From Psilocybe cubensis (taxonomy: Eukaryota), in NCBI GenBank assembly GCA_017499595.2, contig CM038999.1:434001-498000 (forward strand): DNA of 64,000 nucleotides, in the 5' to 3' direction. Both the position numbers and the translations under genes were made by a program. Under the pieces are notes generated by a model. It searched no databases, was not told the origin of the DNA, and saw only the letters and a list, made by a program, of their open reading frames with translations. Each line of letters starts with the position of its first letter. Position 1 is the first letter of the stretch. Positions 33,766 through 58,415 of the stretch are shown here, piece by piece.

Positions 33766-35412
33766 TCACTCTTCATTGTCCTTAGAGTCACTCCTGTATT
33801 TTCTTCCAGCGTGCACAAGAAAATCTTCTCCGTCTCTTCCAATAAGCTGAAGTTCAACGCCGGATCTTTGAATATTCAAGAGCTGCAAAAATTGATCTTG
33901 CTTCATTAAATCTCCGTCGTGTACTAGAGGCCGAAGAACTTCATCTTTGTTAACCAGCTTGAGAGCAACCTTAGAAAGCGACCTTCGCATAGGCTTTACG
34001 AGGTACGAATGAGGAGACTTCTCTGTGCCATGGTACGCGATACTCGGCGGAAACATGTCAATGAAGCTATTCCAACGATCGGGCTTCATAAAATAGATTA
34101 ATTGAATCTCCAGGATCTGTAAGCTAGGGAAGAGGACAGAATCATCCTCCGCGCCATATCTGAGTTCACGTAGAGTGTCGTCGAATGTTTTAGGGCTGAC
34201 TTTAAAAGAGTCTACGTTGATCCTCAAATGAGTCAGAGGGGGGTATCGAGAGTGCCATATAGAAGATCCTCTAACTGACCAAGGTCCAAGACCTTCATGA
34301 CCTAACAGAGTCATACCGTTACAGGCTTGCAACTCAAGCATCACGTTTTGAATTGGCATTATTGCATGCGATCGCTCGAAAAATTCCACAATCTCTGTCT
34401 CCTCGCTGTAAAAAGAATCCTCCCATGCCCCTTTCGGATCTAACCGGCATACCAAAGTTTTCAACGATGGAAAGCACAGATATTGAAGCGCATCTTTGAC
34501 GCCCAGTAAAGACATTTCCAGATGTGTCACGGAGCTATTGTGAATGCTCTTCCTTTCGTTGGGAAGTGTTATGACATTTCCGTGGATATGATAGCGAAAG
34601 GTGTTTAACCTAATCGACTTTATTACGATTGTTTCAAGATTGACAGCGTGGTTGACGATATGCAGAACTAGTTCAGCATCGATGTCGTCCACTATGAGAT
34701 GCCGCAAGTTGTCCCATTGGAGAAAGTTTAAATCATGAAAGTGAACGAGCGCTCCGGAGATGGTCTGTGCCTCAAATTTATGAGGTCGGAGAGGCTGAAA
34801 CATGGGAACTTCCTTCCAGAGTGATCCGTACACAATACGTAAATCTTCGATCCTTGTGGTGTCCTTGAGATTTTTAAAAATTTCATAAAGTACATCGCAG
34901 TCGACCTTGTAGAGAAAGACTCGATTCCATCGCGCGGAACACGTTCTAATGAGATCCAGGAGAGGTTGTATATCTTCTAACGTAACGCCGCCTGAGCCTC
35001 TTCGATGTCGTACAACAAGTGATATAGGAAGGCCTCCCGAGCGAAAAATCCGTTTTTGAATAAGATTTGTGAACTTGAAATCCATGCTCGGGTTGACGAT
35101 GAGAGTAGTCCACAACTTGGGGGTCCCTAAAATGACATCTCTCCAGTTCTTGCATACTTCGCCTAGAATGACTAGAGGAGACCACCGGTGGTTGCGATTG
35201 CCTTCTGAAGCCTCGGAATATCCTTCCTCGTACCCACTTGCCATCGCCAAAATTTCTGAAAGTAACTCAACCGCTAGAGCAGAAATCGGGGAGGCTACAA
35301 TCGAACGACCGTAGCTACCAACGGATGCATCCTGACGATTTCCAGGACGCATGTCTTCAGAAGTAGTACTGATTATCGACGGCGCTGTGGTTGGAAGCAG
35401 CTGCTGTGCCAT
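33766..35412 (-). CDS. Intronless F-box-like protein with LRR-like C-terminal region
   Basis: SPISALAVELLSEIL...LGEVCKNWRDVILGTPKLWT F-box signature; ARW, FPSLKTL, FPSLQILEI repeats; uninterrupted ORF. Confidence 0.82.
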   Translation of the reverse strand: MAQQLLPTTAPSIISTTSEDMRPGNRQDASVGSYGRSIVASPISALAVELLSEILAMASGYEEGYSEASEGNRNHRWSPLVILGEVCKNWRDVILGTPKLWTTLIVNPSMDFKFTNLIQKRIFRSGGLPISLVVRHRRGSGGVTLEDIQPLLDLIRTCSARWNRVFLYKVDCDVLYEIFKNLKDTTRIEDLRIVYGSLWKEVPMFQPLRPHKFEAQTISGALVHFHDLNFLQWDNLRHLIVDDIDAELVLHIVNHAVNLETIVIKSIRLNTFRYHIHGNVITLPNERKSIHNSSVTHLEMSLLGVKDALQYLCFPSLKTLVCRLDPKGAWEDSFYSEETEIVEFFERSHAIMPIQNVMLELQACNGMTLLGHEGLGPWSVRGSSIWHSRYPPLTHLRINVDSFKVSPKTFDDTLRELRYGAEDDSVLFPSLQILEIQLIYFMKPDRWNSFIDMFPPSIAYHGTEKSPHSYLVKPMRRSLSKVALKLVNKDEVLRPLVHDGDLMKQDQFLQLLNIQRSGVELQLIGRDGEDFLVHAGRKYRSDSKDNEE

Positions 35413-35617
35413 CTTGTAGGCACAACCGTGGAAATGCCAGTGGTGAATCACAACGAATGCAATGGGTGGTCAACCAAGAAACAGAGTCCAACTTTATATA
35501 CAATTCAAGATACCGATTCAGGCCACTCTTCAATAAAATGCCAATGGTGGCCTCAATATTTCCGGAGGCCCACAGAGGCCACAGGTCGATGGAAATAATC
35601 TTGATTGATTAAAAAAG

Positions 35618-35691
35618 TGATTCGACCCAGGCTCGAACTGAGGACCTTCTGTGTGTTAGACAGATGCGATAACCAACTACGCCATCGAACC
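35618..35691 (-). tRNA. tRNA-Val(AAC), identical to the copy at 31659-31732
   Basis: Exact reverse complement of the 74-nt tRNA at 31659; followed by T6 on the minus strand. Confidence 0.95.
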
Positions 35692-38209: not shown

Positions 38210-39759
38210 TCATGAAACAGTGACAACAGCAGGCAACGCCTTCAATGATTTATCCTTTTTCTGTTTTTTCTCCTTCTTTTTCTCCGAAACCTCTATCACT
38301 GGCGGGCAATCCACATCCATCGAGTCAGAGGAAGCCTTTTCCTTCTTCTCCTTTTTACTTTTCTTTTTCTTCTCCTTCTCTTCGGTGGCCTCAGTGGCAG
38401 GAGTCGCATCAACATCCATAGCGGGTTCCGAGGGCGATTTAGATTTGTCTTTTTTCTCCTTCTTGCTGCTCTTCCCCTTAGCCTTCTTTTCTGATTGTTC
38501 CTCCTTCGACTCCACAACAGTAGAAGCTGCCGTGTCTACGTCCATGGAGGGTTCCGTAGGCGATTTTGATTTGTTCTTTTTCTCCTTCTTGCTGCTCTTC
38601 TCCTTTTCCTTCTTTTCCGATTTTTCTTCCTTGCTGGACTCTGCAGGAGGAGAAGATTCGTCTGATTTGCGTTTCTCCTTCTTCTCCTTCTTATCTTTCT
38701 TCTCTTTCACTTCCTCCTTCTCCTTCTCCGCTTCTACAGTTACGACAGCTTCTGACGCATCCTTGTTCTTTTTGTCCTTCTTGGATTTTTTCTCTTTCTT
38801 GGAATCCTCTTTCGAAGACCCAGCGTCGGGCTCTGAAGGCTTGTCCTCCTTCTTTGCTTTTTTGGTAGATACAGCGGGCTATAATATGAATATGAGTGAG
38901 CATACGTTCGTCGACGCTTGGTTGATGCAGACAAGAATGAATGAATGAATGAAAAAAAGCACGCACAGTATCCTCAGAATCCATCGACTTCCTCTTTTTA
39001 TCCTTCTTCGCCTCAGTGGTTTCCTCAGTGGAAGCAGCAGTGGGGGCAGGCGGGGGAGTAGGCATGTTCCGCGAATTGGCACCAAGAGGCGTATCATTCG
39101 CACCTGATGCATTCGTCCTCGGCCCCCACGAATTATACCCTCCCCCACGTCCCCCACGTCCTCCATACCCTCCCCGTCCACCACCACGACCTCCACCGTT
39201 GTAGCCATTGGAGTTAGAGGAGGCGCCGCCGGGAGGATGGAACCACTGCGCGTTGGACGCGCGTGCGTTTTTCTCTTCTTCCTTTGGTTGTGCGGAGGCC
39301 TCTTGAGACTTTTGAACAGCCTTCGCCGGCTGAGAAGAGGCAGCAGCACCCTATACAAAATATTATAAGGTAAGGTTACGTCCAAACAACCAACAAAAAC
39401 AAAAAGCAGAGTAGGATGGTACATACAGTCTTCGGTCCTTTATACACGCTCTTTTGGTATTTCTCGGCCTCGCTGATGCACGAAGTATGAGACTTGTACT
39501 CGGCAGGAGTGTTGAATGTTTTTGAACAGTCAATGCAATCGAAAGCAGCACCGCATCGCGCGCGGTGTTGGTCAAGCTTGGGCTTTTTCACGACATCTGT
39601 GCAGGCTGTTTGTGGTAATTATATTACGACTAATTTAGCCAGGTATCTTTGACACCATTAAGTTCCGTATATGACTGACCATTGCATCTGTATCCCAGGG
39701 ACATTAAATTAGTAGAGATTCGAATGATAGATTTGAGAAACGCACTGGAAAGAAACCAT
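38210..39759 (-). CDS. LYAR-type C2HC zinc-finger nucleolar protein with Lys/Glu-rich tail
   Basis: Spliced MVSFQCNACTDVVKKPKLDQH...CIDCSKTF...HTSCISEAEKYQ; RGG segment; KKEK repeats. Confidence 0.85.
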
Positions 39760-40427
39760 TTTTAATCGTTATCGTTTCTTCTTTTTCAAGTAGGTCCGTC
39801 GACTTGTAACGACTGAAGGATAATAAAAAGGAAGCTTAGAGAGAGATATCCTCTACCAGATACAGAAGAGAAAATAATGGAAAGGAAAAGAAAAAAATGA
39901 TGCTGATTCAAGTGCACCGTAGGCGTTCAGTGGGACGTATCTGCGAAAAAAAGGTGGCACGTGCTGATAGTTCTGGGACCCGCGCCGTCAGTGCCGTAAA
40001 GGCGTGGGAATGTTGACTAATGGTGCCATTGCCTCCATGCACCTCCGGCGAGATCACTTGTTAATCAATGTCAACGCTCATCCTTCAAAACGCCTTTTAG
40101 TTTCATTTTTGACACAATAGCAAGCCATTACGTGCAGGGAAAGGATACTTAAGCCAATACTTCCAGAGGGCCAAGTTGGATTGCGTGTTCTTTAAAGTGT
40201 CGTGTTTCTGTTTTTTTTTGTGGTGGTGAGCCGTGCTCTTAAGTCTCCCTGCACTGCTCAGAAGTAACCACAGCCTCCTCTGGGAAAAATATTATTGTGG
40301 TACCCGGTAGCTCATGACACAGCGTGATATCAATGTAGTCATGTAGTGGTTGATATTTCTGCTCACCACTACTCGCTCTTGAGTTATAACTGGACTTTCT
40401 ATTGCGTCTCGACCTCCGCCATCTGCT

Positions 40428-40745
40428 CACATAAGACAGTTTATTTATAACGTACATTACCTAAGATTTAATAATAAGGATATTACGTGACATACGGTGG
40501 ATTTACTCCCGCTACCTAATTAGGAGATTAGCGTGATGTACGTGTGATTTAGCCTGGCAAATCATAGCGTACATGACGTGCCATTTAGCGCTAAATGGAG
40601 CCGCCGGGTGGCCTGCGGGATCCGCGCGTCTACCTACACGGAAGAAACACGGGCCGGAAATGAGCCGGACGGGTCCATTTGCATCCCGTGTATTGCAAGC
40701 AGACGGATCCGCTTGACCCGTGTTGTGCTGTCAGACGGACCCATT
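40428..40745 (+). repeat. Left terminal inverted repeat (318 bp)
   Basis: Reverse complement of 55841-56158 with no mismatch found by eye. Confidence 0.95.
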
Positions 40746-40870
40746 CATCCATCCGCTTCTGTATTCCGACAAATATCCGCCTTGAATCGTACATTGGATG
40801 ACCGTTAATATATGTAATAAGGTGTATAGATTATACTGGCAGCAAATTCCTTTCCACATACCCTGATAGT

Positions 40871-42150
40871 ATGGATTATGCCTTTGAGCTAACCCAATCC
40901 CTCTCAAACTACATGAAGGCAAAGATAGCTAGTCGTCTTTGGCATGCAGAACTGCCTAATCAAATCCGGGAAAACTTCAGTGCTGAGACCATGTTTGAGT
41001 GCAATCTAGCTGTGGAGGTGATTTTGCAGGCATTTGAAAATCAAGGTATGCAATCAATAAGCTTTGAAAATTGAGATTAAATAATGTGTGAATGGCAGAA
41101 TATACGACGTGGGATGCAGAAGAATATTTGACCCATCTCAGCGCACGTTGCACGGGTCAGAATTCTGCCGTTGAGGCTCGCCTGAAAGACCAGTTTCCTC
41201 CGGTGCATTCCACGTTACAGTACCAAACCCTGCCCGGAACTGTAATTGATAGTGCAGGCAACATATTGGTGTGGTACCTGCCAGGTATTTTGTCAGAGAC
41301 AAGGGTGGTGAGTTTTAGAAACGGACCGATTAATTCCTATATTATGCGTTCTAAAGAGTAACAGGAGAGTGTGTGGAATTCATTACGGGATATTGAAACA
41401 ATGATTCACAAGGCGGCACCTTTGGCCACAAGCTGGAGGGTCAATGACAGTTACTTTCGACATGAGCCAGGTTGGCTTCAACCTGGAAATCTTAACTTTT
41501 CCCCGGCATGGTTTCAGCAAGGCCATGAGGTGAGAAACTTGTTTGCTAAGTATTATACTGCCTCATATTTTCCTCAGACGTCCAACCCGCTTGAGGTCTC
41601 CTTGGACTTGTGTAATCCTATTGGACAGGAGTTTATACGAGACATGATGACATCTTCGGCTTTGCTGGGAGCCATCTTGAGCATTATACACCCCGAGCAG
41701 TACCGGGCGGGAATAAAATTTCTTCAACGGCTTGCTGCGGAACCGGAGTTCGTCCATAAGGCCGAAATATTGAAGCAAATTCTCACAATATGGAGTTCGC
41801 CCTTTGGAGTCATGACCGCCATCAGCAACCGAGATACACCGTACCATCGGGATAATGGGTCATGCTACTCATGGTACGATTTTTTGATGCCACTTGGGAA
41901 GGGTGAACACGGACGGCTTGAGCTTCCTGGCCTTGGACTTCGGTACAAGTATGATCCCATGACCCTTGTTGCAATTACCGGCAGGTTGCTTCAACACGGC
42001 GCGGTGTGCGAGGGAGATAGGGCAGTCATAGTCTATTACATGCGTAGGAATGTATTTAAAGAGCTGGGAGTCCAAGAGGCGGGATGGTCTACTACGTACG
42101 ATCTTTTTGCAAATTTACCGGCCACCAACACTTTTGATTTTGAAATATGA
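40871..42150 (+). CDS. TET/JBP-family 2OG-Fe(II) DNA base dioxygenase (transposon-borne)
   Basis: ILVWYLPG, NFSPAWFQQGH, NRDTPYHRD (HxD), LLQHG (distal His), GDRAVIVYYMR (2OG Arg); three GT-AG introns give an open frame. Confidence 0.85.
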
Positions 42151-42377
42151 TCAGTTTTTGACTTGGAAGTTGGGTTTGGGGAAGATTTTTTTATATTTCC
42201 AAAACAAAACGGTACGAAAGCTACAGAACAACCAGAATTCTCTGTCCCAGGGTGTTTCCGACGCGCCCGCGCTGAGCTCTTCCAAGGTTACCGGAATCAT
42301 CGGACTCCGCCGTCGTATTACCGGCGGAAAAGGCATCATCCGCCTCCTCTTCGATGTCCTGTGCGAGAGGTGGGCAA

Positions 42378-44002
42378 CTAAGATTCCTCATCCCAGGGTG
42401 TTTCCGACACGTCCTCGCTAAGCTCTTCCGAGTTACCGGAAGCATCTGACTCCTCCGTCGTATCACCGGCGGAAGACTCCTCATCCGCCTCCTCTTCAAA
42501 GTCCTGTGCGAGATGCTCTAAAAACGTAGCTGGTGTAGAGGATTCAGTGGTATCGGACGTACTATCAATATCATCCTCTTCTCCCGGGAAAACAGGTCTT
42601 GACCTTGCGTTAAAAAGGAAGGCATTGCTGGTGTGTGCATTTGACGGAGGGCTGACGGAACCGGGAGTAGGCAGAGTATCTGTTGGGAGATGAATATTTG
42701 CAGTGTTGGAGGGTGGCGAATGATACCAGAGTGGATGAAAAGGTAGTTCCTTGACGGCAATAAAAGAATAAAAAATGTCGTTGATGTAAAATGAAGCGAC
42801 TTTGAGCTTTGAGACCTCGAAGGACCGGGCTTGAGCCGTTATAGCGCCCCAACTGTCAGGAGAAGGGTGAACGGGATGCTGAAATTTGTATTTGGCTGAA
42901 AGCCCCTTGCCGTTAGAGAACGGGTGCTCCTTAGAGTCAATCCACATCTTCTCCAATACAGAATATCTGCCCAAGGCGGCCGAAGAAGTAGTCACTGCTT
43001 TATGGGCATTTTTCATTTTGTCCGCCACATTCCGGCGCAGGTGAGCCAACTCCCTCATTACGCCCGTTAGGATAGGCTGACCGCAGCGGGGACAGTAGGG
43101 CGGTCTGTGGTCAGAAATTGCAATTGGGGATGTTTCATCCCGCGTGTTTGCAACACGGGTCGGCGGATTGGGTTTCCCCGTGGGCGGTGAAAACGCGGAG
43201 CCATGCTTTCCCGTCAACGCGGATCCGTGCTTCCCCGAGATGGGGACGGATGTCCGTTCAGCCGCCTTTCCCTTGCCCTTGGGATTGTTTTCCTGATTTC
43301 TTGGAGGCCCAGAGGTAGATGAACTTGCGCCCTCCTTAGCTTCTTTCCTCTGATTATTTAGCCGGAGTACCTCTTGTTGGTATTCAGGCAGAACCACCTG
43401 GTGGGAAGGACGCAAATCAGATATAATCCACAGCAATAAAAAAACATACCTTGTTCCAAAATTCTCTTGCTTGCGATTCAACGGTAACAAAGGCAACTTG
43501 CCACTCATCGCCTTCAGCAAATCCGTCCCTCCACCAATATCCCCAGCTCTTGGTCTGATTTAAAATTTCATCATCTTCCCATGCTGACCAGCTTTGATTT
43601 AGAGATTCAAATAGAACAGCTCGATGGTGGGGAGTTCGGTTCAAAACGGCATGTACGCTCTGATTGAGAATTTCTGATATAAAAAATGGAATATCGACTT
43701 GGAATCCATTGACATAGCAGTATCCGAGTACTCTCAGCAGTATAGCCTGACGACCAGTTCTCAATACAAGATATAATCGTTCAAAATTACTGTCTTACCA
43801 CCTCCAGGTCAAGCAAATACATCCATTTTTGGCGACGCACGGAGGAAACAGAGTCTCCGTTTGCAATGAACAAACGGTATCCGGCACGGATCCGTGCACC
43901 ACAAATATGGACATGAACTTTGGCCAGAGCACGTCGCTCATCATAGGTAAGGAGATGATGTTCGTCCTCGACAGGAGGTTTAAAAAGCCGCGGTAAGTGC
44001 AT
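42378..44002 (-). CDS. Transposon cargo protein of unknown function (3 exons, CPRC motif, acidic tail)
   Basis: ORFs 43787-44071, 43417-43764 and 42378-43520 join in frame through two GT-AG introns; start MHLPRLF is inferred. Confidence 0.65.
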
Positions 44003-44046
44003 GAATTCAACGAGATGGGATACAACAAGAATGTTCAAAGAACTGG

Positions 44047-47000
44047 TTAATCTGTAATTATAAATCTCCACACGGACGGATACTCCGGGTTAATTTGACG
44101 GAAGACCTTATCCGCGGCCCGCCCCAGATCATTCCACATGGCAATCTGCTTTTGAGCATTTGCCCTGTGACCAACTAACCTGTCAGGAACAAAATCATGC
44201 CGTGCACGCCATGTCTTTGCCATATACACATAAAATCTGACAGTCCATTCCATTTCCTTTTTTGTCAAGGCCAGCTCCTCTTGCCATCTATTCCTCTGAG
44301 CTCGCGCGCGGAGCCAGTTTAGCCTAAAGACTAAGAAGCCCTTGAGAAAAAAATTAGAAATACAAATAGCAGTACTCACACTCATTAACGTATAATTGAT
44401 TATCATTGTCCAGGCCCTGACGGGATCTCCAAATCCAACTTAGACGGTCCGAGCTTCCTCCGCGAATGTTCGGATCCGACACGGCATTACTATGCTTGCA
44501 ATCATGGACTTGCAGAATGGGATATTGTTTCCGAATATTATCCTCGTCTCGCACGCCAGCAGATAAATAGATCATCTTCTGACGGTTTGTGTTGTAGAGT
44601 CGCCGGTGCAATTTCCAGGAAGCATTCAAAAGCTTGACGCCATCCCAAGCACGAGTCCCCATATAGACGGAGTCGGCGGTCCGAACCTGATATTTATACT
44701 GCCAAGAAAGCTGGATCAAGGCTGACCGGACCGCTTCCAGACAGTCCTCTGCGTGGCCATGTCTTATTTGAAGTTCAAGTTTGCGAAGCCCTTTTAAAAT
44801 GAGGTTTGTTCCCGCGTCAAGGCCGTCAAAGAAATCTTGTTTGACGGCGGAGGGAAACGGAAGCGGCTGTCGTTCCGGATCCGCGCGGGTAATGTTGACA
44901 TTTCCAAGATCAGGATCGTCGTTGTCACTGACTTCATAGTCAAGTATGGGAGCGATGTCCCCTTGAATATCCTCCAAGACATCTTTGCCCATGAAGGTCA
45001 TAGCGGATCGACAGAAGGCTTCAACGCGGGTCCGCATGGAGCGACGTTTATTGACCAAGTCAAGTTTCTGCGCGGTGGAAGGATGCTTTCCGAGCTTTCT
45101 GACATGGTCCCTGAGCTCCAATCTAAAAGCATGTTAAATTCTGTAGGATGCAATTGAAATAATCGTACTGCGCTTGCTCCAGTTTTAAGCCGGATGATAT
45201 CCATGCTGCCTTTCCAGTAGCACCATTAGATGTAAGTTCCATATTTGAAAGATGCAATTCAATTTCTTGGCGTCCAGCAGCCGTTTTCACTTTGCTTGCC
45301 ATTACCTTGCCAACAGCGTCGGCCACACCTTGTTCTCGGTCCGCTTCTGCTTTTGAAATTTCATCTTCCCAAGTGTTGATGAGCCCGGAATCTTGTTGAT
45401 CCGTGATACCCCTATAAAATCGGTCTGTGATTCCGGACTGTTCCCGTGCCCGTTTGAACTTTGCAGCAATTGTTGCAGCCATATTAATGGTCTTCTTCCA
45501 GTTGGAATCCCCCATGTGGTCGTCCAAAACCTCTGCTCGATGGGCAGTGGTAGCGGAACGTGTACTCCGGGATGTGTCATTTAACACGGACCACAACGGC
45601 TCCAGGATTTCTCCGTCAATGATTCCCACACCCGGGACATAGGTGGATGCGTAGTTGTAAAGACATTCCGTCTTGTGCCCGTGGACGTGAAATAAACCAA
45701 TTGCAAAAATCATTTTAACAGAAGGTGGCCAATGCATTTTTGTGGACTCTGAGAGACGCCTTGCCAAGTTAATGCAATATTGACAGTTTATATCGTAGAT
45801 TTCCAAATGTTTTGTGATTCCCTGTGTGTTGGTAGTTTCCCTGGCCTGAGTCAAAGACCAATCCATGTGCATCTGCTTTTCGCCTTTGTCAAAATCGACA
45901 ACGCTGGATGGACAGAAGCATCCGTGCCTAGCGCAAGCGTGTGCCCCAATTCCACGTACTCTCTTACCCGGGCTGACTCTGTTTTCAGCTTTCTGGGCGT
46001 GGTAGTTATGACATGTTTGTTCCTGATATTTTTTTACACGGAGGATAAGCCATCCGCCGTGGAAGATTTTTTTGACACGGAAGGGAAGCATCCGCCGTGG
46101 AAGATTGTGACACGGAACGTAAGCATCCGCCGTGAAAGATAAATCATGGTAGATAACGCACCCGTTTATAACGTGGAGCAAGAGAAATTGCTTCCTTGAT
46201 GTGCTCCTTGTATGGGCCCGGAGCAGTCATGTATCCTTCTCCAACGCTCAACCAAACATCGTCTCCCTCGTTTTTCTGATTGAGGTGATCTGCTTTGAAA
46301 TTACCATCTGCAACATAACTACGTATGTACAGATTGCTATTTGCTGTTAATTGCAGTCACCCTTGAAGAATAACTAAAACTTGCCTGTCAGCATCATCAA
46401 TCCAGGTATCAGGTAGGTTTATTCCAGGCTGTGGACAGGCGGGGCAGAATAAGGCCAACTTCCCTCTCCTATCTTCAACTTTGGGATGATCCTCGGTCCG
46501 CGTCATTTGTGGTGCAGGCGGACCATCTAATCCGCCGTGTCCCAGAGACGGGTCCGTTGACATTCCGACTTCTTGAGACGGACTATCAGATCCGCCATCA
46601 ATTGGATCAGATACATTAATACCCATCCTCTCTGGTGATGAATCATGGCAATGATGATAGTAAGGGACCACCGCTTCTCTTGTATGCCCTTCTCCGTATT
46701 GTCGTCTCAGGACAAGGTCCCTGTATTCTCTACTAAGCCTTCTCAATTCACGATAGCGGTTCAGCACCTTTTTTGGAAACGCTGGCGAAGTCAGTCTTCG
46801 CAACTTTTGGTAATACTGATAAGCCGACGTTTTGCACTCGAGGTTGTCCATCCGAAAGTCCTCAAGGACCTCAACTGTGAACACAGTTTGAACGTTTTCA
46901 AAGCTGGCTGCAAATAATCCCATCTCCAGATACTGTAAATCGATAGACGGAAGGCGGACGGACCGGCATGTGCATGTTCGCACGGGCAGATAATGGACTC

Positions 47001-47969
47001 CGGAGGTGTGCACAATTGCCTTGAAAGGAATTCCATTGTTGTCTGCTGCCTTTGGACGAGGTTGGTCCAGATAGGTTGTATCGACTTCCTCGAATAGATC
47101 ATCATTTTCATCGTCTCCATCGTCCAGCTCAACCAAATGGGGTACCTCCGGGTCCGCCAGAAGCTGAGCCGTAAAGGATTCTTGGTCATTGCTCGCAGGA
47201 AGCGGATCCAGGTCCAATCCGTGTTCATCCTCAAAGATGGGCGAATTGTTTCCGCCGTGCCCATGACTCCCGGATGAATTGTTTCCGCCGTCGCATCCTA
47301 GATGGCTCGGATCCGTGGGATAAGGACACCGCTTCCCATTATGACCCAAATACAACTTGACACCCACTTCCCACAGAGCTCCCGGACGGAAATATAGACC
47401 CGTCCACTTCTCAACGCGGTGGAAAGGTGTAAATTGATGGTTTCTTCGCAGGCATTCAGAACACAAAATTCTAGAGCCAAAGCATTGGCAACATCTCCAC
47501 ACTCCAGACATTCCTTGACATTGCTGACACCGTCCATTCAGATCCGGATCCGGGGCTTCTCCTCCAATCATTGTTCCAAGATACACCTCTCGTTTCGGGA
47601 GCCATTCCCTCAGGTAATCATTTTGAGACTGGATAGGTAAAGTCATCCTGATCATTCTACTGAAAACATGTTAAAACATACCTTTCCTCCCGTTCTGTCG
47701 TCATCTAGCTGTCTCAGGTTATCAAGTACCTGCTGATCAGTTAGATCTCCCGGATAATGAGGTATTTCTTCTTCCAGAATGTTGTGTTCATGGTTTTGGA
47801 AAGAGTAAGTCGTTGTTTGAGGGAGGTTTGTTGATGATGATTCTGCAGGAAGTTTGTGGATCCTCGGCCGCCCTCTCTTTCGTTTCTTGGCCCCACTAGA
47901 CCAGGAGGCCTCCCGAACATTGGGAAACTCCTCATCCGATCCCCTATCAGGTACTTTCTTGAAGCCCAT
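44047..47969 (-). CDS. KDZ (Kyakuja-Dileera-Zisupton) transposase with CxC2 cysteine cluster
   Basis: CxxC..CxxC..CxxC..H..PFHRVEKWTG, VHTSGVH...CTC, CPACPQPGINLP, DGNFKADH, CARHGC, DFDKGE, YDINCQY, FHVHGH..C, DGEILEPLWS, WLRARAQRNRWQEE; five introns, one of them GC-AG, give a continuous frame. Confidence 0.92.
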
Positions 47970-48848
47970 GGATGTTGGAAACAAAGAGTCTGACAGCCTG
48001 TGAGCGCAGATCTAAATGTAGTATAACATGTTTATTTCTGTAGATAAATTTCCCTCAATTATGCCGTTTTAAAGAGGAGAAAAATAGCTTTCATATGATC
48101 TATCTTGCAGCATATTTGGATGAGTGAGTGAAATGTTATGAACAAAACTTAATCCAGAGATGCACAAAATGGACGTGATCCCATCATAAATGTACAATAT
48201 GATGCAGAACGACCCTTTCAGAACCACACTTTGGAGTGTTTTTGAAATATCTTTTCACTGGCTGGCCCCTCATTCCTCCGGCGTATATCATATGAAAGAT
48301 ATTTTTAATAGCTACCGAATGACATTTTTTGTAGAATGTGAATCCTCGTATTTAAGGAGATATTCTCAATATACTAGAAAATGTGTCAAAATGAGCTCAC
48401 TGGGATCATTATATTTTTTGAAAAAAATTATGCATTTGAATACCTCTCATGGTCTCTGAGATGACTGCCGTTTTGGGTTTCACAAGTTTTGGGTGAGAAG
48501 ACGTGAATTTGAATTTTGTGTTTCTGTATCTTTACAGCCATCTAACAAGAATTTAAAACCTTGTAAGATTATCTTTATATAAAGCGCTAAATGTTTACAA
48601 AATTTCATGTTTATTGATTGAGTGCAGAGGGAACTATTGCAAAATCATGAGGTCAATGTATGTGACAGCGACCAGCATGCTTTGATCATCGTGGCCGACG
48701 ATGAAGCGGGATTACCTGATTGGGAAAAATATGACATCACATCATTCATTTAGTATGATCGGAAGCTTATTTTATCTCCGTATGACGTGAGATTTGACTA
48801 GATCACACAGATACTCATCGATAAGCTACTTGTTACATCGCTGCAATT

Positions 48849-51159
48849 ATGCCCACCATTGCATCCCCCGACGCGGATCCGCTTCCTTCCACCGCAAATG
48901 CCACAACCCACAACGGACCCAGAAGCGGACAGACGGCGGAGGGTGACTTTCCGCCGGAAGAATCAAATATATGGACCACAAAGGAAATGCGCGTGTTGAA
49001 AAAGCATGTACAGCCCTACAAAGATACATCAAAGTCATCCAAAGCAGACTACATACAGAACACTGTCATACCTGAGCTGCAAGCTACATGGGATCACAGA
49101 TACTCTAGACGTGCTAGGAAGGAAGATAAGCAACTACACAAAGAATGGAAGGTGAAGAAGCATGTGAGCTCGTTGTTTCTTTGAAAATTTTGTTACACAC
49201 ATAAACCATCACAATAGCGAATTTTTAATTGGTTTAGAAACCATGCGTCAAATCGAATTGGTGTAAAATTGGAAGGATTGAACTCCCGTATAACCTTTCA
49301 GACGGTATTCCGTGAGGAGAAGTCGGCAGAGATTGACTCCGAGGTTGCGCTTCTATCAGGGAATGCTGCTCGTGGAAGTAAAGATTGGATGAAGTTTTAT
49401 CAACAAGGACGTAAGCAGGTTGAGGCCAGATTGACTCAGGAGGAGCGGGACAGGTTCATGGAGATCCTTGAGGAATGGAATAAGAAAGGTGTTTCAAAAT
49501 CAATGAAGGCAAAGTGAGTCGGTGGAACTTGTTTCCGCCGTCAATCTGACATCTGCAGGACTGCTGCCAGGCAAGGCAGAAAAATACTTCGACAAATGGA
49601 GAAACTTAAGTGGCAGAGAATGGGTATGAGGTCCATTACCTTTGAGGGGCATTATGATATTGAGGGTAAAATCGAATACTCAATGTAAGTGTTAAACACG
49701 GCATGAACAAGTTCCGCCGTGAATGCTTACGGCGGAAACTTTATCCGCCGTAAACACCCTACGGCGGATAAAGTTTCCGCCGTAAGCATTCACGGCGGAA
49801 TAATTTGGCCCGTATTAATGTTGACTGATGGGCATTGAAGGACCCAGACAAGCGATCTAGCACTCGACGATGTCAGAATTCCTTCCTTTGGGCAACTCTT
49901 TCCATCCGAGTTGGCCGCTTTTCGCAGAGCGTTTGTTCAATACCTCGTCCACATTTCAGAAATAGAGAAGGGTGTGGCCAATCCAGCACTGCCAGATGCA
50001 TCGTTTCATGAAAAATCCCTCAAGTTTAGCAGCAATGGATTTCCAATAGTACCTAGTCCTATCTATGGCTCAACTGGGAGAGAAGTCGCTTATGCGCAAA
50101 AGTCAATTATTAGAATTTACATGAACAAGGTTTATGGTGTGTAATTTGTCTATGTCCTCAACAAACTTGCTAACTATGTATACAGCTTTAGCCAAGGATA
50201 GGCCTGGTTCAAGTGTTCCTTGGGATGCTCTTGAAAGGCGTTCTGCAGAAATGATTGATCCAGAGTATTGGCCAAGTTCAATCCCCGTGACGGATCCGAG
50301 CCGGCTCCGCCTGGAGTCAACTTCTGCAATTCTCAAGCTATGGAGGGACCGTCAAGCGCAAGGAGACATCCCCTTTAAATTCTCAAAGGTTTTTGGAAAT
50401 GGCTATGACATTATGGAACCTCTCTATCCGTCCAACTTGTTTGACGGCCTAGAAGCCCACCCGATACCTCCACCTCCTGCAGCCATAACCAAACGTCGGC
50501 TGAGGCAAAAAGCTATACGACTTCAAACCCAATCTTCAAGCGACTCTGAATCATCCAATCTGTCAGAGTTTGATAATGGACGGGGTAGTCCGGCATCCGC
50601 GATGCCACGCACTACTGCCAGATTTGAAGTCACGCCAGAGACGGATGAGACTCCTACCGACGCACCTTCAAGATCTAGCGAGCCACCCTCTCTACCAAGT
50701 AGATCCAGCCCAACAATTGTCAATCCATCATCCAGCCCAACTCCAGAGGTTGAGGAGGCGCCTCCCAAGCCAGCTAGAAAGATTATGCCAAGAAAAAGAA
50801 CAAAGCCATATGTCGGAACGGCGGAAATGGACGGACCCGATGAAGAGAGTTCTGTACCCCCCCCAGTTAAGCCAAAACCAACTAGAAGGATTCAACCTAG
50901 GAAAAGAACAAAGCCCTACTCAGATCCACTTAACACAGTGGAAGAAGATGGAGTCCAAACAGGAACAACCCAAGACACGGATAATACACGGGCCGGCAGG
51001 GACGTGACTTGTGATGCCTTTGTGGAGACAGTAACAAGTCCAGATACGGATGAAACACGGGCCCGCAGGAATGTGACTTCGGATGCCTTAGCACTTCAGG
51101 AAGCAAGTCTGCTTGCTGTAGCAGGTAAAAGACAAAGAAAAAAAACTTTGAAAGCCTAG
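48849..51159 (+). CDS. Transposon-associated putative DNA-binding protein (homeodomain-like plus HMG-box-like), multi-exon
   Basis: RIFNWFRNH helix motif, YQQGRKQVEARLTQEERDRFMEILEEWN HMG-like segment, basic repeated tail; GT-AG introns join the ORF pieces. Confidence 0.6.
49712..49800. repeat. Perfect 41-bp-arm palindrome with 7-nt loop, inside an intron
   Basis: 49712-49752 is the reverse complement of 49760-49800; contains six TCCGCCGT/ACGGCGGA copies. Confidence 0.93.
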
Positions 51160-51437
51160 CTGTTGAAGTAGATTCATGATACCTATTGAATGTGATGCTT
51201 TTTATTCTTATCTTGATGTTTCTCAAACATGTTTTCACACAAAATCAAAACAGAAAGCGGGGTTCATTAAAAATCATCAAGTGCTACTTTTTGGGAGAGG
51301 TATAAAACAGATGAGCACATGAGAGTAAAAACTATATACAGTCCAAATGATGAAAAAATTGTATAGGGATGTGAGCAATGTAATATATGACAGGCAAAAA
51401 AGGAGACCAAAAAAAAGTTACAAAGAATTGAAATACA

Positions 51438-53990
51438 CTACTTTTTTTGGGCCTTGGATTTTTTGGGCGAGCGCGATGCTTCAGCCAGAGTCGTTTCCGC
51501 CTTTCGCTTTCGTCCAGCCCTTGTCTTTGTGGCTATGTTCGACGCGGGCAGCGTGGACGCCACGATCTCAACATCCTCCTCCTCCACAATTTCAACCTCG
51601 TCGCTGTCCGAGGGATCAGACAACTCCGAAGAGTGTCCATTCCCGGATGGCCCAGCCTTGGAGGATGGCTTAGCCTTTGACAATGGCTTAGCCTTTGAGG
51701 ATGGGCCGGCCTTTGACGATGGTGCACCCTTTGACAACGGTGCGGCCTTTGACGTCGAACTTCGAGGACGTGGAGCTGGGAGAGGGGGTGGTGGAGACAG
51801 GGAAAGGATGGGCGGTACCGGTGGGAGCGAGGGTCGGCCAGCTGGGGGGGGCGAAGGCGCTTCCGGAGTCGAACCGGGCAAGAATAGCGCTGTTGGTGGC
51901 GCAGACACGGCAGGGAGGACGGGTGCGGGTGGAGGTGGGGGAGGGGAAGGGAGGACAGGTGCTGGCGGTGGTGGAGGAGGGGAAGGGAGAATGGGTGCTG
52001 CTGGAGGTGGAGGTGGGGAAGGGAGGGGTGCTGGCGGTGGTGGTGCGCTTGGGGATTGTGGCACAGAGGTGGGTTCACGGGTCCGCGACGGACCCGATTC
52101 TTGTTCGACCTCCGTCTTGGAGGGTCCTGCTGCCTGTTTGGGGGCGGGATTCCTTTGTTCATCCTGCTCCAGCAAATCGTCGACCACATCTCGGACGTGG
52201 TTGATCCTCTTGGTGATGTCGTTGAACATCGTGACGGAAAGCGAGGTGCTTCCTGCCACTTGTTCTTTGGCCATGGTCCATTCGGCCTTCACCTCTTGGA
52301 TGCCGTCCTCGATGCTCTTCATCCTGTTCTCCACCGCCAAGTTCGTCTCGGCAAACGTCGCAATCCGTGCATTAATCGCCGTCATGGACGCGGATAACCC
52401 GTCCAGCCGTTCCATGATTCTGCCTTGGCGCTCAAAGAGCTGCACAAGCAGTTCTCCCACATCCTCGGGGAACGACCCTTCCCCGGCCTTCCCCTTCGCC
52501 GGAACATCTTCTCCCTCCTCCAACTTCAACGCCTCCCCATAGCTTCCCAGTGGCGTCGTCAAAAATTGACCCACGAAGGTGTTGCGCCCCGGGTAGAAGC
52601 TGCAGTGGATCTTGCGAGACTTGCAAGACTCGCAAGATTGGTGCTTCACGGGGACGAGAGGCTCAGTGCCTGTCTCCCCCTTGACATAGCATGGCACCTT
52701 GAATTTGATGCATGCCGTGCACCTTTCCACCATGTCCACCATCCCCTCTGGCACCTGGCGCACTTTCTGGGATCTCGACCGCGCCTTCCTGATGGGGGGG
52801 ACATCGTCCTCGGTGTCCTTCTTTACGGAACGCGTGCGCATCTTCCGGGTGGGGGTGGCAGTGGGGGTGGTAGGCGGTGCCCCTTTGTTATCGCCTTCGT
52901 CGTCCTCGTCGACGTCCGCGTCCGCGTCTTCGTCCGTGTGGCTTCCTATGATCGCCTTGCTCCTGAATTTCCCCTGCTTGGACTTCGCCAATCTTTCCAG
53001 CTTCTCCCTGTACGCTGGGTGACCGGGCATGTTGGAGGCGGTAATGTGGGGAATAATTTCCCCCTTCTTTGTCCGTGGGCCCCTGTAATCCGCTGGAGCC
53101 AACTGAATGGACTCCACGGGGTCCGCCGCTTTCCGTTTGCCCTTGTCTTTGTGGGCGTCTGTCACGGGTCCGTCTTCCACCGGGGGTTCGACTGCCTTGC
53201 CCTTGCCCTTCTCGGCCCGTCTCTTCTCCGTCTCCTCCTTGTTCCTCTCCTCGTCTGTCTCCTGCTCCTGCTCCTGCTCCTGCTCCCTCTTCCTCCTCTC
53301 CTCCGCCTTCTGCCTCTCCTGCTCCCTGGTCCTCCTCTCCTGCTCCCTCTTCCTCCTCTCATCCTTTCTCCTCTCCTCCACCTTCTGCTTCTCTTCCTCC
53401 CTCTTCCTCCTCTCCTCCTCCCTCTGCCTCTCCTCCTCCTCCTCCCTCTGCCTCTCCTCTTCCTCCTCCCTCTTCTTCTTCTCCTCCCTCTTCCTCCTCA
53501 CCTCCCTCTTCCTCCTCTCCTCCACCCTCTGCCTCTCCTCCTCCTCTTGCTCCTCCTTCTCCCTCCTCTTCTCTTGCTCCTCCTCCTCCCTCCTCTTCCT
53601 CTGTGCCTCCTGGCCTTCCTGGTAGGCCTTGAAGTTGGCGACTTGATGTTTGAGCGTCGCCCAGTCGACCTCAAACCTGTAGATGTTCTCGCCGTCCTTG
53701 CCCTGGATGACTTTGTACGAGTAGACAACGGGGCTCGCAACATAGTCAATGAGCCGGAAGCGTGCGGCGTCCCTGACATGCTCCTGACACAATGGAACCT
53801 ATTGGAATTTTTTTTTTTTTGTTGAGCAAGTCATGATCTTATAAAATTGAGAACTTACCAAGTCCCTGTAAAGCTGCTCCAACTCAGCGTTGAACGCGCT
53901 TTCACCGTTGCGGTAGCACTCGGTAAACTTTTTTTCCCAGTCAGCGAGGCGTTGGGCGAAGGTGGCGGTGGTGGAAGATGAAGCGGCCAT
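51438..53990 (-). CDS. Transposon cargo protein with Zn2Cys6-like cluster, Glu/Arg-rich helix, coiled coil and Pro-rich tail
   Basis: C-x2-C-x6-C-x18-C-x2-C-x6-C (CTACIKFKVPC...CESCKSRKIHC); first exon MAASSSTT splices to VPLCQEHVRD; C-terminal RKRK/PKKSKAQKK NLS-like motifs. Confidence 0.72.
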
Positions 53991-54296
53991 TGAAAAAAGC
54001 GTGTTTTTATGGGGGAAGACGCGTTAAAGTGGTGAGGCACGGTAGAACGTGAGGGTGGTGATCGTGGTTGGAGTTAGTCTAAAAAAAGTCTAAAAAAAAG
54101 CGGTCCCGCAAAACAAAACCATACACAAACATGTACAATCTGAGTCATGTGATTTCTTCACCAGATCCAGTTTGTGCAAAAGTTGCTAAGTTCGATACAC
54201 GGGTGAATCTATTTCCGTGTCATGGAGAATCCTTGGATAGTATTGTATTCCGTGAGATATATAAACAAGCCCACCCAGTTGCACTTTCTGGACTGT

Positions 54297-55762
54297 ATGT
54301 CCTCCTACAACTTTATTCCCACCTCTAGCAAAAATTCCCCCATTGACTACACCAGTCTCAACAATCTTACCAGGCTTCTTGAAAAACTGAAGGAACCTCC
54401 TCCCGTAAAACCTATAAAATGTAAGACTAATGGCATTAATTCAAGTAAATTTTAATTGATTTCTGAGCATCAGCAATGTCTTCAAATATTAGCAACTCTA
54501 AGGAAAGCAAACGCACAGCAAGGACGGATGACCTGGCTCCGCCGCCAATGCCAGTCATTCCAGATAACCTGGCTCCACCCCCTATGCCTGTTATTCCAGA
54601 TAACCTGGCTCCTCCCCCTATGCCAGTCATTTCATCTAACCTGGCTCCGCCCCCTATGCCAGTCATCCGGAAAGACCTGGCTCCGCCGCCAATGCCAGTA
54701 ATTCCAGCTAACCTGGCTCCACCCCCTATGCCTGTTATTCCAGCTAACCTGGCTCCGCCCCCTATGCCAGTCATCCGGAAAGACCTGGCTCCGCCGCCAA
54801 TGCCAGTAATTCCAGCTAGCCTGGCTCCACCCCCTATGCCAGTCATTCCAGCTAACCTGGCTCCGCCCCCTATGCCAGTCATCCGGAAAGACCTGGCTCC
54901 GCCGCCAATGCCAGTAATTCCAGCTAGCCTGGCTCCACCCCCTATGCCAGTCATTCCAGCTAACCTGGCTCCGCCGCCAATGCCAGTCATCCGGAATGAC
55001 ACGGCTCCGCCGCCAATGCCTGTCATCCGGAACGACACGGCTCCGCCGCCAATGCCTGTCATCCGGAACGACACGGCTCCGCCGCCAATGCCAATCATTC
55101 CAGATAACCTAGCTCCTCCCCCTATGCCTGTCATTCCACCTACCCTGGCTCCTCCCCCTATGCCTGTTATTCCAGATACCCTGGATCCTCCACCTATGCC
55201 TGTCATCCGGGATGATGTGGCTCCGCCGTTGATGGCAGCACATGTTTCATACACGTCTGTCGTCGACAAAATCATTATGGACTCTCGTCCAGCTATTTCC
55301 TCTGAGAGGAAGCAAGGTCGCTATTCTCCACCCCCTGAAGCATGCCACCTGCTCCTTCAAAACCCTTATTTTCGAACCTACGGCAGGTTTGATCCCATGG
55401 GCGGCTACCCCGGTTCGCCTCCCACCCAGTCTGACATTGAGTTCGAGGATGTGACAGATCAGACGGCATATTTTAACCCTCCTTTTCTATATGTATGCAC
55501 TCAGATATTACCAAGCACTAGATACTGACAACTATTTTAGAATTATACCGAGCAGCAGCTACGGGCAACATACGACCAAATAATCGACAGTTCCGTCGGC
55601 GACAATAGTTATGACAGCAAGGTCACAACGTTTAAGAACCTCCGCCTGCATCAGCTGCAGTCAGAAATTCTGACTTATAATGCGCTGGAGGAAATTGACG
55701 CTGGGCTGGCAGGGATTGAATCGAGTTTGGAAAAGCATTTGTATACCGGTAGAGATGAATAA
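54297..55762 (+). CDS. Transposon cargo protein with about 20 proline-rich 12-aa repeats and a helical C-terminus
   Basis: xxLAPPPMPVIx repeats; GT-AG introns at about 54421-54473 and 55492-55540 keep the frame to TAA at 55762; start could alternatively be 54222 or 54476. Confidence 0.62.
54527..55234 (+). repeat. Coding minisatellite, 36-bp unit, about 19.7 copies
   Basis: Repeated ACCTGGCTCCnCCnCCnATGCCnGTnAT; partial 108-bp higher-order periodicity. Confidence 0.95.
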
Positions 55763-55840
55763 ATTATTTTTGGAGCCCTTGTGCTCATTGATTCGCAATA
55801 CCTCTCAAATATCCCTCCCTCTCTGGGAAGATACGGGTCA

Positions 55841-56158
55841 AATGGGTCCGTCTGACAGCACAACACGGGTCAAGCGGATCCGTCTGCTTGCAATACACGG
55901 GATGCAAATGGACCCGTCCGGCTCATTTCCGGCCCGTGTTTCTTCCGTGTAGGTAGACGCGCGGATCCCGCAGGCCACCCGGCGGCTCCATTTAGCGCTA
56001 AATGGCACGTCATGTACGCTATGATTTGCCAGGCTAAATCACACGTACATCACGCTAATCTCCTAATTAGGTAGCGGGAGTAAATCCACCGTATGTCACG
56101 TAATATCCTTATTATTAAATCTTAGGTAATGTACGTTATAAATAAACTGTCTTATGTG
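55841..56158 (-). repeat. Right terminal inverted repeat (318 bp)
   Basis: Reverse complement of 40428-40745. Confidence 0.95.
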
Positions 56159-56233
56159 ATCTGCTCTATTTTGTATACGTCGGTTAATCCTCTATTAGCC
56201 TTTTTTCCGAATTCTTCAACGCAATCCACCCAT

Positions 56234-58415
56234 ATGTCACTTTTGCGGACGGTACAACATCTCCTGACCTACAAACGAGCTCCCTCGAATAAAAGGCAGA
56301 ATTGTGTGGCCGGAGGCCCTTCAACTCAAACCGCCAACGTCAAAATCCAAAACCATACAAGGTCTTTACTGGAGCAGGCACCAAAATCGCTCCCCAAATC
56401 ACCAATCCACACCCTACCGATTGAAGTTCTGAGTTTGATTTTCTCTATGTGCCTCCCGGATTTGACAACCGAACCTTACGAACGACATTCGTGGACCTCA
56501 ATCCCATCTTTCAATATCTCATGGGTGTGCAGTGATTGGAGGACAATGGCTCTTGGAACCCCTCTTTTATGGACCGTCTTGGCGGACATCGACCTCACAA
56601 GATCGAGTTATGCTTCTTTACGCTCATACCTTCGATTCATAGGGGAACTACTTCACCGCTCAGGGAACATGGACCTCACTATATTCATCTATGCCCCAGG
56701 AGTATACGAAAGCGAGGCAATCAAACATCCTATTATCAATTTTCTTCTTGAGAGCAGGGAGAGGTGGGGCACACTGATGTTTCACAGCGGAATACCTGTC
56801 ATCAATTTGTTTTGCAACGACGGCCATGAATACATATTCCCTCGATTGCGCAAACTCGGGCTCAACATGTGCATTCGACCGCCCCATATGAAGATTCTTG
56901 GCTTTGCCAACGCACCATTGTTGGAGGACGTATCTGTCTCAGGCCTTTTCCCAGATCAGTTGCTATTGCCCTATGAACATTTAAAATCATACAGAGAAGG
57001 AGGCCTCTCCCATTCTGTCGATCCCGTTCCAGCGTTCCTAAAAAATGTCCTCATGCACGGCAAGAGGCTGGAGAGGCTGGAAATACTAGGTATAAACTAT
57101 TTCATCCCAATGATTCCAAACCCACCACGTAACCTCAAGGTTCTACATCTAAGATTGGACAGCATGCGTAGCCCTGACTTTCTGGGCGGTACTTTTTTAG
57201 ATGCCCTCAACCTTCCCTTTCTCGAAGAGCTGAAATTTAGGGGGATGTACATCAAAGACAATGCAATTGTCGAAGATCTTCTATGTCGCTCTATCATGTC
57301 GAATCAACAACTACCACTTCGTATATTACATCTTCGATCGGCTTTTCCTACTTCAACCGCCGGCAACCTCTGGAGATTCTTACAGATGACACCGTTTCTT
57401 CAGGAGCTCAGTATAGACATGCCACATATCAACGATATGATCCAGCTCATTCAGAACATGGCTCCATCAGGCTGTCTATCCCGGTTACAAAGAATGGCCA
57501 TCCATCTAGAGCAAAAAAATATCAAGGACCGATGGCGTAGTACTCTAGACGATCTGACAGCAAAGTTTTGCGAACCTCTCTCAAGCGAAGCGACTGGCGA
57601 TCAGTGCCGCGAATTGCAGCTGATATTTCCTAGCCGTTTTGAAGCGCGTTACGTCCAAGATATGTTAAATTTGTGGAACACTGTACAATGTTAGTGCCCA
57701 GTCACTAAGTTGATCAATGCTAACATAGCACTATAGTGGATCCCATACATACTGCAGACTTAGAAAAGCTCGAAGGATGGCGATCAAAACTCCACGATAT
57801 ATTGCCAAATGCGAATGATGAGTGGACGCCACCTTGCTGGAAATCAACAAAGGGATTACTTACTCCGGGCCGGGGACGCCTACATGACATGGGCTTTGTC
57901 TCTCACCTAGAACGCCTTTTCGGGGAGATTGCAAACTTTGAGCTGACCACCATCAAGTGTCCTTGCCTATATGTATGTAACTCTCCGTCACGCTAATTGT
58001 CTGCTTTCCCCAGCCGGGTGTTAATAATTGTTTGGACCCAGTTCTCCAGATTACTTTATTCTTTGCACTGTCTGAGCGAGTTAAAAGTTACAGCCTGGAG
58101 TCCGCTCACATCCCGCGAAAAGCAACACAAGTTACTCCGACAATCGAAGCAGCTTCTGGAAAAATGGAAACCAATTTTGTTACATGACCTGGTGAAGGAA
58201 CAAAAGGACAGATGGGTCTCTAAAGGTATTCGTTCCCTTGTCCTTATCCCAAAGAATCACGGTAAGCTACGATTGACAACAAATCTGCCATATACTTATC
58301 ATCCACTTTTACTTCTTTTCCAGCATTACATCAGTCACCCCGGGCGGTAGAATTAATCTACGGTCTGCATGAAGACATAGAAGATCGCAATTTGTTGTGG
58401 CCAGCTAGTTGTTGA
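56234..58415 (+). CDS. F-box-like protein (multi-exon; 3' end uncertain)
   Basis: SPIHTLPIEVLSLIF...SWVCSDWRTMALGTPLLWT; ERW; FPRLRKL, APLLEDV and LPFLEEL repeats; downstream exons linked by GT-AG introns; stop at 58350 or 58415. Confidence 0.75.

Follow-up and report, generated by a model that had tools for sequence, protein, structure and literature searches.

A recently inserted KDZ transposon with its own TET/JBP gene, most likely of the Kyakuja lineage, in Psilocybe cubensis

Introduction

Complete transposons that carry a TET gene are described in the main text of Kojima 2025 (PMC12730594), among them Kyakuja elements with 7-bp target site duplications (TSDs) and 5′-CA..TG-3′ ends. That text names Kyakuja-1_LB and Kyakuja-2_LB of Laccaria bicolor, reports TET-carrying Kyakuja families from five Agaricomycotina orders, and gives two Laccaria Kyakuja families as being without terminal inverted repeats (TIRs). 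The TSDs that it lists for Zisupton, and for an element that it counts in the Dileera lineage, Zisupton-1_PGr, are 8 bp long. It places the TET protein CcTet beside the AG-type TETs of Kyakuja and Zisupton, some Zisupton families carrying an AG-type TET of their own. Here we describe a 15,731-bp unit from the mushroom Psilocybe cubensis, located at positions 40428-56158 of a 64,000-nucleotide stretch of DNA (assembly GCA_017499595.2, contig CM038999.1, positions 434,001 to 498,000 of the forward strand) that was analysed as a whole and is called the window below. Our results make it very probable that this unit is one recently inserted, structurally intact, cut-and-paste element of the KDZ type, with the Kyakuja lineage as its most likely home. 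It is a young member of the class published in 2025, and the claim of a first-pass annotation of the window that the true boundaries and the TSD length are settled by this copy has been overtaken, both being already available for TET-carrying Kyakuja in PMC12730594.

The portions of PMC11343200 on which we draw describe a second group of relatives, the KDZ1, KDZ2 and KDZ3 elements of Cryptococcus neoformans, which are 9.2-10.9 kb long; KDZ1 has TIRs of 236 bp and an 8-bp TSD and belongs to the Dileera clade. According to the same portions, Dileera-clade elements encode a CxC1 cysteine cluster and a Zisupton-type element encodes CxC4 together with a SWIM domain, additional open reading frames (ORFs) of unknown function are present, and transposition was shown experimentally. 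A more distant parallel is provided by the anti-silencing factors of plant VANDAL (MuDR) elements, cited in PMC12730594, where the likeness is one of strategy only and both the proteins and the superfamily are unrelated.

The P. cubensis element shares with TET-carrying Kyakuja, as these are presented in the main text of PMC12730594, the combination of a KDZ transposase and an AG-type TET in one element, the 7-bp TSD, the CA..TG termini and an Agaricales host. It differs from them in having four further genes, accessory genes for Kyakuja not being described in that main text. With the Cryptococcus elements, as described in the portions of PMC11343200 used here, it has in common a large size, long TIRs, TSDs and additional ORFs, whereas those elements have 8-bp TSDs, CxC1, a place in the Dileera clade and no TET, and their mobility is proven while here it is only inferred. 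The likeness to Zisupton, within the same two partial sources, extends to the KDZ superfamily, the TIRs and, for some families, a TET; Zisupton differs by its 8-bp TSDs, and the Zisupton-type Cryptococcus element by CxC4 and SWIM, neither of which was seen here. The word "Psilocybe" does not appear anywhere in the main text of PMC12730594, whose supplementary tables may list related families, and our literature search returned no paper that pairs Psilocybe with Kyakuja or KDZ, nor one that combines KDZ, HMG and TET JBP.

Structure of the element

An inverted-repeat search recovered two arms at 40427-40745 and 55841-56159, each of 319 nt and 100% complementary to the other. Because the outermost base of each arm belongs to the TSD, the true TIRs are 318 nt long, the left one at 40428..40745 (+) and the right one at 55841..56158 (-), the latter position being fixed also by the breaks in raw sequencing reads described below. 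The left arm begins with CACATAAG, and the element as a whole reads CACATAAG...CTTATGTG, which gives it 5′-CA..TG-3′ termini. On direct reading, the 7-bp sequence ATCTGCT stands immediately to the left (40421..40427) and, in identical form, immediately to the right (56159..56165) of the element. The coordinates, the TIR length and the TSD proposed in the first-pass annotation were thus correct. A 34-nt tip of the element occurs twice in the window and 0 times in 100 shuffles. The GC content of the whole element is 0.488, and its observed/expected CpG ratio of 0.81, compared with 0.78-0.98 in host DNA, indicates no CpG depletion in the window copy. A search of 40000-56600 against Rfam gave 0 matches.

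Six genes had been proposed inside the element, and all six give open frames if GT..AG introns are allowed for, so that this part of the proposal stands; the coding status of the last of them, a proline-repeat ORF, is unconfirmed. The first-pass annotation had suggested a search with the Pfam profiles KDZ, CxC2 and TET/JBP, and all three families were found. The close protein matches of the element's genes all carry the name Psilocybe cubensis.

The KDZ transposase gene lies at 44047..47969 on the minus strand and, in a model that combines Pfam matches with splicing, has about six exons encoding about 1200 aa with an N-terminal CxC2 cysteine cluster. Pfam KDZ (PF18758) matches at 45123-46226 (-) with an E value of 6.4e-38 and 131 bits against a cut-off of 26.6, and CxC2 (PF18803) matches at 46357-47670 (-) with an E value of 1.4e-21 and 77 bits against a cut-off of 27. 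The N-terminal 48 positions of the KDZ profile fall in the preceding exon, which bears a DGNF motif that we take to be a mark of KDZ proteins. The last intron of the model is ambiguous, and the intron at 46161-46023 contains a variable 35-39-nt repeat, of which one 39-nt unit is a point of difference among sibling copies. No Pfam match to a SWIM domain was obtained in the element, and CxC4 was not seen either. The transposase gene and gene 4 are divergent, and the AT-rich spacer between them (47970..48848; GC 0.358) is presumably a shared promoter region.

The TET/JBP dioxygenase gene is located between the TIRs, at 40871..42150 (+), on the evidence of a Pfam Tet_JBP match (E 3.1e-19 on 41362-42150, +), a match to CcTet of Coprinopsis cinerea, and splice models. 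A short model joins 41092-41307 to 41365-42150 and encodes 334 aa, and a possible additional 5′ exon at 40871-41045 would bring the protein to 390 aa; the solved chain of CcTet, which is the closest solved relative (PDB 7vpn, 7w5p), has 430 aa. The main exon aligns with CcTet (7vpn) at an E value of 7.8e-27, with the H-R-D motif, the second (distal) histidine and the arginine aligned. The residues equivalent to His326, Asp328 and Asp337 of CcTet are kept and that equivalent to Gly331 is a serine, the roles of these residues being taken from the main text of PMC12730594. To judge from this alignment, the element's TET is predicted to be an AG-type, CcTet-like Fe(II)/2-oxoglutarate dioxygenase with its catalytic residues in place.

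Related copies and the empty site

A run search listed 16 public sequencing runs, of which 14 contain part of the stretch and nine contain half of it or more, these runs coming from five studies. Four runs were compared with positions 38500-58000, with siblings counted at a minimum identity of 95%. In the raw reads of run X15, four bins in the flanks have a depth of 24-29x, and 17 bins over 40453-51519 have a depth of 433-604x with a mean of about 512, a ratio of about 19 that bears out the earlier expectation of sibling copies. Word depth in run X9 is 23 in the flanks and 260-376 in the element, the equivalent of 11-16 copies. We put the family at roughly 13-19 copies per genome, counted at an identity of 95% or more. 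Among the aligned X15 reads, 32,410 of 50,761 (64%) are at least 99% like the window.

The ends of this repeated unit are the same as those read from the TIRs. At the left end 362 X15 reads break, 231 of them at 40428, 82 at 40427 and 49 at 40426, and at the right end 325 reads break, 220 at 56158 and 105 at 56159. The consensus of the loose ends beyond these points has a low agreement of 0.36-0.59, and a mixed consensus at exact ends therefore indicates many different insertion sites with the same ends. Gene 4 belongs to a 90% protein cluster of 22 members; for the 15 members listed there are 16 locus tags, spread over contigs of eight different lengths. The genes carried between the TIRs, which in principle could have been single-copy host genes, belong to the repeated unit, because all of them are present at multi-copy depth and the locus tags of genes 4 and 5 recur as neighbouring pairs.

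The site itself has an empty allele. A contig of 8508 nt from run X9, which represents a third strain, spans 38500-40425 and then continues at 56179-58000, and the same joint is present in three X15 reads, so other strains lack the element here. Taken together, the perfect TIRs, the Pfam matches, the empty allele and the siblings support what the first reading of the window had proposed, namely a complete and recent KDZ transposon with its own TET/JBP gene, and none of the refuting conditions that it had named was borne out.

Whether the family still moves is a point on which the data allow more than one view. The family could be young yet silent, with near-identical copies left over from a finished burst and a site polymorphism that is no more than segregating ancestral variation, a reading that we consider possible, if somewhat doubtful. 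It draws on the absence of RNA from any element gene in the data obtained and on the state of individual siblings in X15, subsets of which have 1-nt deletions (110 of 534 reads at 47673 and 179 of 552 at 51259 are examples) or internal deletions of 994 nt (40771-41764, which removes the 5′ half of TET; 27 reads) and 6894 nt (10 reads). It draws also on the variant places in X15, where C>T (105) and G>A (105) make up 210 of 431, compared with 107 for A>G (55) and T>C (52) together, which is what would be expected of copies that are methylated and decaying. This excess may reflect methylation-linked decay of individual copies; no C>T/G>A bias is present in the X9 contigs. Against a silent family stand the window copy itself, with 0 mismatches between its 318-nt arms and all of its frames open, the large share of X15 reads that are nearly identical to it, the undepleted CpG, and the fact that insertion sites differ between strains.

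Run X10, which carries the label of another organism, contains short pieces of the element with 0-7 differences at low depth, and is without the flank.

The accessory genes

Two of the remaining genes form a pair. Gene 4 (48849..51159, +) has five exons and encodes 668 aa in a model identical to the annotated P. cubensis protein P0158, with a homeodomain-like helix motif, an HMG-box-like domain (HMG, high-mobility group; about residues 122-200), a GTF2I-like domain (about 296-428) and a disordered basic tail. Its family is large, a HMMER search giving 280 representatives at E values up to 1e-3 and 46 at up to 1e-10, and its nearest Atlas clusters consist throughout of basidiomycete "hypothetical proteins". 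Gene 5 (51438..53990, -) has two exons and encodes 830 aa in a model identical to the annotated P. cubensis protein P0174, with a charged coiled coil, a CX2CX6C-X18-CX2CX6C motif, a second coiled coil and a proline-rich tail.

The label "HMG-like" that gene 4 had received at first reading finds weak support in structure. An AlphaFold model built from 41 sequences has a predicted local distance difference test score above 90 over most of residues 40-430. In VIA comparisons, which are alignment-independent, the top match of the whole model is the GTF2I domain 2d99 (Z 7.3, root-mean-square deviation (rmsd) 3.6, 89 of 90 residues) on residues 296-428, and nine HMG-box entries are among the matches listed, on residues 118-212. 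When the exon-2 domain was modelled by itself, the top six VIA matches were HMG-box domains, the best being 7cyu at a low Z of 5.4 (rmsd 3.0, 60 of 62 residues), and 19 of the 50 rows listed were titled HMG or high-mobility-group. Foldseek gave no match at E values up to 0.001 for the whole-protein or the domain-only model, and no HMG box is among its best 50 for the latter. Sequence profiles do not place the protein in the HMG family: the HMG Pfam profile has no match to the gene 4 protein (P0006) at E values up to 5, HMG profiles match 0 of 18 short relatives of the domain at E values up to 1, and HMG_box_2 matches one of 41 gene-4 relatives (E 4.3e-4, at a position that may or may not fall in this domain). 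The family profile of gene 4 matches NK-2 homeodomains weakly (E 0.045) across a WFxNH motif and GTF2I repeat chains weakly (E 0.046-0.65), and a gene-4 relative on the metagenome contig L001 matches Pfam GTF2I at an E value of 0.0028 and 18.4 bits, under the cut-off of 27; together with the VIA match this makes three GTF2I signals, which are weak and partly independent. On the strength of these models we read gene 4 as a protein that probably has several small DNA-binding-like folds, for one of which "HMG-like" would be a fair if weakly founded description.

For gene 5 the label "Zn2Cys6-like" does not hold as Pfam membership, the match to Zn_clus having an E value of 0.35 and 11.5 bits against a cut-off of 21 and covering profile positions 1-14 only, and no Pfam family was found for the protein. 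Canonical Zn2Cys6 clusters follow the spacing CX2CX6C-loop-CX2CX6-8C and have a central loop of 5-12 residues; the six cysteines of gene 5 enclose a central loop of 18 residues here and of 14 in the relative on L001, which matches Zn_clus at an E value of 0.73.

The two genes occur together beyond this copy. In the annotated P. cubensis genome their locus tags are consecutive at six places and differ by two at a seventh. When metagenome contigs were searched with the gene-4 alignment, 28 pattern matches yielded three loci, and on two of these contigs, L001 and L002, a weak relative of gene 5 lies just downstream of the gene-4 relative in convergent orientation, the same as in the window. Gene 4 is only 26-38% identical on these two contigs, and the gene-5 relative has all six cysteines conserved (pairwise BLASTP E 7e-5). 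L001 and L002 seem to be copies that come from a single organism, and they amount to one, at most two, independent confirmations of the linkage. Relatives of KDZ, TET and gene X were not found on the three metagenome contigs, which at 3.2-6.0 kb are too short to be informative on this.

Within P. cubensis, gene 4 is the more uniform of the two. The 668-aa frame is open in 11 of the 15 listed cluster members, and those 11, when aligned, differ from the window model at 0-10 residues. Gene 5 comes in two types, the commoner annotated type (10 cluster members; P0004) differing from that of the window (two members) at 83 of 830 residues. The depth of X15 drops to 165-329x over 51520-54123, which fits the presence of the second gene-5 type. 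Siblings are much more divergent in this stretch than outside it, which points to either two subfamilies or fast evolution of gene 5.

We take genes 4 and 5 to be putative element-encoded accessory factors that would bind DNA or chromatin. A fuller proposal, which we offer tentatively and regard as rather unlikely in its entirety, is that the pair is a conserved, undescribed accessory module of TET-carrying Kyakuja that steers the transposase or the TET to its own DNA or chromatin, in a P. cubensis family that is maybe still transposing. The linkage of the pair suggests that the KDZ machinery has parts which the portions of the KDZ literature consulted here do not describe. If the family does still transpose, a cultivable mushroom would offer a natural system for a direct test of TET anti-silencing.

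The four genes that encode neither transposase nor TET could instead be captured passengers without a role in the life cycle of the element, which we think fairly unlikely. This possibility gains from the observations that gene X and the N-terminus of gene 5 have detectable relatives in P. cubensis only (the first 100 residues of gene 5 have three matches among 497 candidates, all from this species), that none of the four has a Pfam family, and that the Cryptococcus KDZ elements too carry ORFs of unknown function, as far as PMC11343200 is drawn on here. Passengers would not be expected to stay linked and convergent where gene 4 has diverged as far as on L001 and L002, nor to keep the six cysteines of gene 5 there, and the largely preserved frame of gene 4 among its listed copies argues in the same direction.

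Gene X (42378..44002, -) has three exons (44002-43841, 43746-43450 and 43397-42378) and encodes 492 aa with an acidic tail in a model identical to the annotated P. cubensis protein P0173. In a search of 5.8 billion proteins it had one match among 2299 candidates, from P. cubensis, and neither a Pfam family nor an Atlas match was found for it. The ATG of X (44002) follows the stop codon of the transposase (44047-44049) at a distance of only 44 nt. In the public annotation of another copy, an annotated P. cubensis protein of 1559 aa (P0172) fuses the transposase with X and skips the catalytic core; this fusion may stem from a defective copy or may be an annotation artefact. The 3′ end of gene X, which encodes the acidic tail, is repeated once just past the stop (42238-42513), with a period of 145 nt and 87-88% identity.

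The sixth gene is a proline-rich ORF at 54476..55528 (+) with about 20 tandem 12-residue units, encoded by a 36-nt repeat at 54527-55227 that Tandem Repeats Finder gives as 19.5 copies. Repeat number differs among siblings, with joints of 36, 72, 144 and 288 nt. No Pfam family was found for the ORF. It is a candidate gene only, because the opposite strand is open as well and the exact translation is absent from the protein collection.

A perfect palindrome with 41-nt arms, found in the inverted-repeat search, occupies 49712..49800 in intron 3 of gene 4. Many siblings are without 63 nt of it (among X15 reads, 135 have the joint 49711>49775 and 115 have 49728>49792), and a 63-nt difference is present also in the X9 contig across the palindrome, which has a depth of 327.

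Lineage and mechanism

We place the element in Kyakuja on four of the five features of TET-carrying Kyakuja, namely a transposase of the CxC2/KDZ class, a 7-bp TSD, CA..TG ends and a CcTet-like TET within the element, the fifth feature being transposase phylogeny. A KDZ element of the Zisupton or Dileera lineage would be an improbable alternative. It could appeal to the AG-type TET of some Zisupton families in the main text of PMC12730594, and to the TIRs of Zisupton and the long TIRs of Cryptococcus KDZ1 where the Laccaria Kyakuja have none, insofar as the two sources are used here. The same partial sources give 8-bp TSDs for Zisupton, Zisupton-1_PGr and Cryptococcus KDZ1, in contrast to the 7-bp TSD and CA..TG ends here, and they associate CxC1 with the Dileera clade and CxC4 plus SWIM with the Zisupton type, in contrast to CxC2 with no SWIM match here. 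An assembly artefact or a segmental duplication as the source of the inverted repeat and the boundaries can be practically dismissed, as raw X15 reads from another strain pile up in the element, with a depth jump of about 19-fold, and stop matching exactly at 40428 and 56158, and an independent X9 contig crosses the site without the element.

Several points nevertheless weigh against our reading of the locus as a recent, intact and mobile Kyakuja element. The Kyakuja placement, which we give as most likely, uses the TSD, the termini, CxC2 and the TET type, rather than a transposase tree, and the two Laccaria families that the main text of PMC12730594 gives as without TIRs differ from the 318-nt perfect TIRs found here. 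The empty allele is not letter-perfect. The first-pass annotation had predicted that an empty site would read CTCCGCC-ATCTGCT-CTATTTTG; such a site exists, and it is 15 nt shorter than predicted, being without 40426-40427 and 56166-56178. Its flanks are about 2% diverged from the window, with 41 differences and 12 gaps in 1.9 kb on the left and 33 differences on the right, and the simplest reading of the 15 nt is an ordinary indel, although they could also be a repair footprint. The copies are not all alike, part of the family differing by about 10% in gene 5, and flank depth may be lowered by haplotype divergence, which makes our copy counts upper-leaning. The family is possibly active at present, its mobility being inferred from copy number and site polymorphism, and the anti-silencing role of the TET would apply here by analogy with a hypothesis of the literature.

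In the mechanism that we envisage, the transposase of about 1200 aa, through its CxC2 zinc-cluster region and its KDZ catalytic domain, would bind the 318-nt TIRs and cut at the CA..TG ends, on the model of known KDZ/DDE transposases, and integration through a 7-bp staggered cut would leave ATCTGCT on both sides. The TET could then oxidise 5-methylcytosine, and possibly N6-methyladenine (6mA), and in this way counter methylation-based silencing of the element, as has been hypothesised in the literature. Protection from silencing by a TET that the element itself carries is still hypothetical, and an intact copy with near-identical siblings in high number and polymorphism between strains could help to test it. 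P. cubensis is easy to grow and widely sequenced, so that methylation could be profiled, expression analysed and transposition assayed.

Host context and other features of the window

The element has landed in the spacer that separates two host genes. The left one is on the minus strand and is spliced, with a 76-nt intron at 39350-39425, in contigs of run X13, which we guess to be RNA; these contigs cover 38500-39594 and nothing of the element, which speaks neither for nor against its expression. The right one is an ORF at 56231..57694 (+) with its ATG at a distance of about 65 nt from the element, and a promoter effect of the element on this candidate target is plausible; an insertion so close upstream of a host gene suggests that such elements may add to differences between strains. 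The right-hand ORF matches 0 Pfam families. Two further ORFs, at 33766-35469 (-) and 60218-62275 (-), have weak F-box-like Pfam matches (E 0.008-0.009, below cut-off); 56231-57694 resembles both by eye only, and the three, all within the 30 kb around the insertion, may form a local host gene family.

Elsewhere in the window, a 545-bp unit at 28441-28985 resembles a miniature inverted-repeat transposable element, with perfect 62-nt inverted ends and no clear target duplication within 15 nt on each side. Two tRNA-Val(AAC) genes, at 31659-31733 (+) and 35617-35691 (-), are inverted and 99% alike, and they bracket about 3.9 kb that contains the ORF at 33766-35469 and a foldback. This foldback, of 1.16 kb at 31977-33136, consists of three adjoining inverted-repeat pairs (80-185 nt, 96-100% complementary) that form arms of about 395 nt around a centre of 370 nt; it has CCAC on either side and is maybe a small non-autonomous element.

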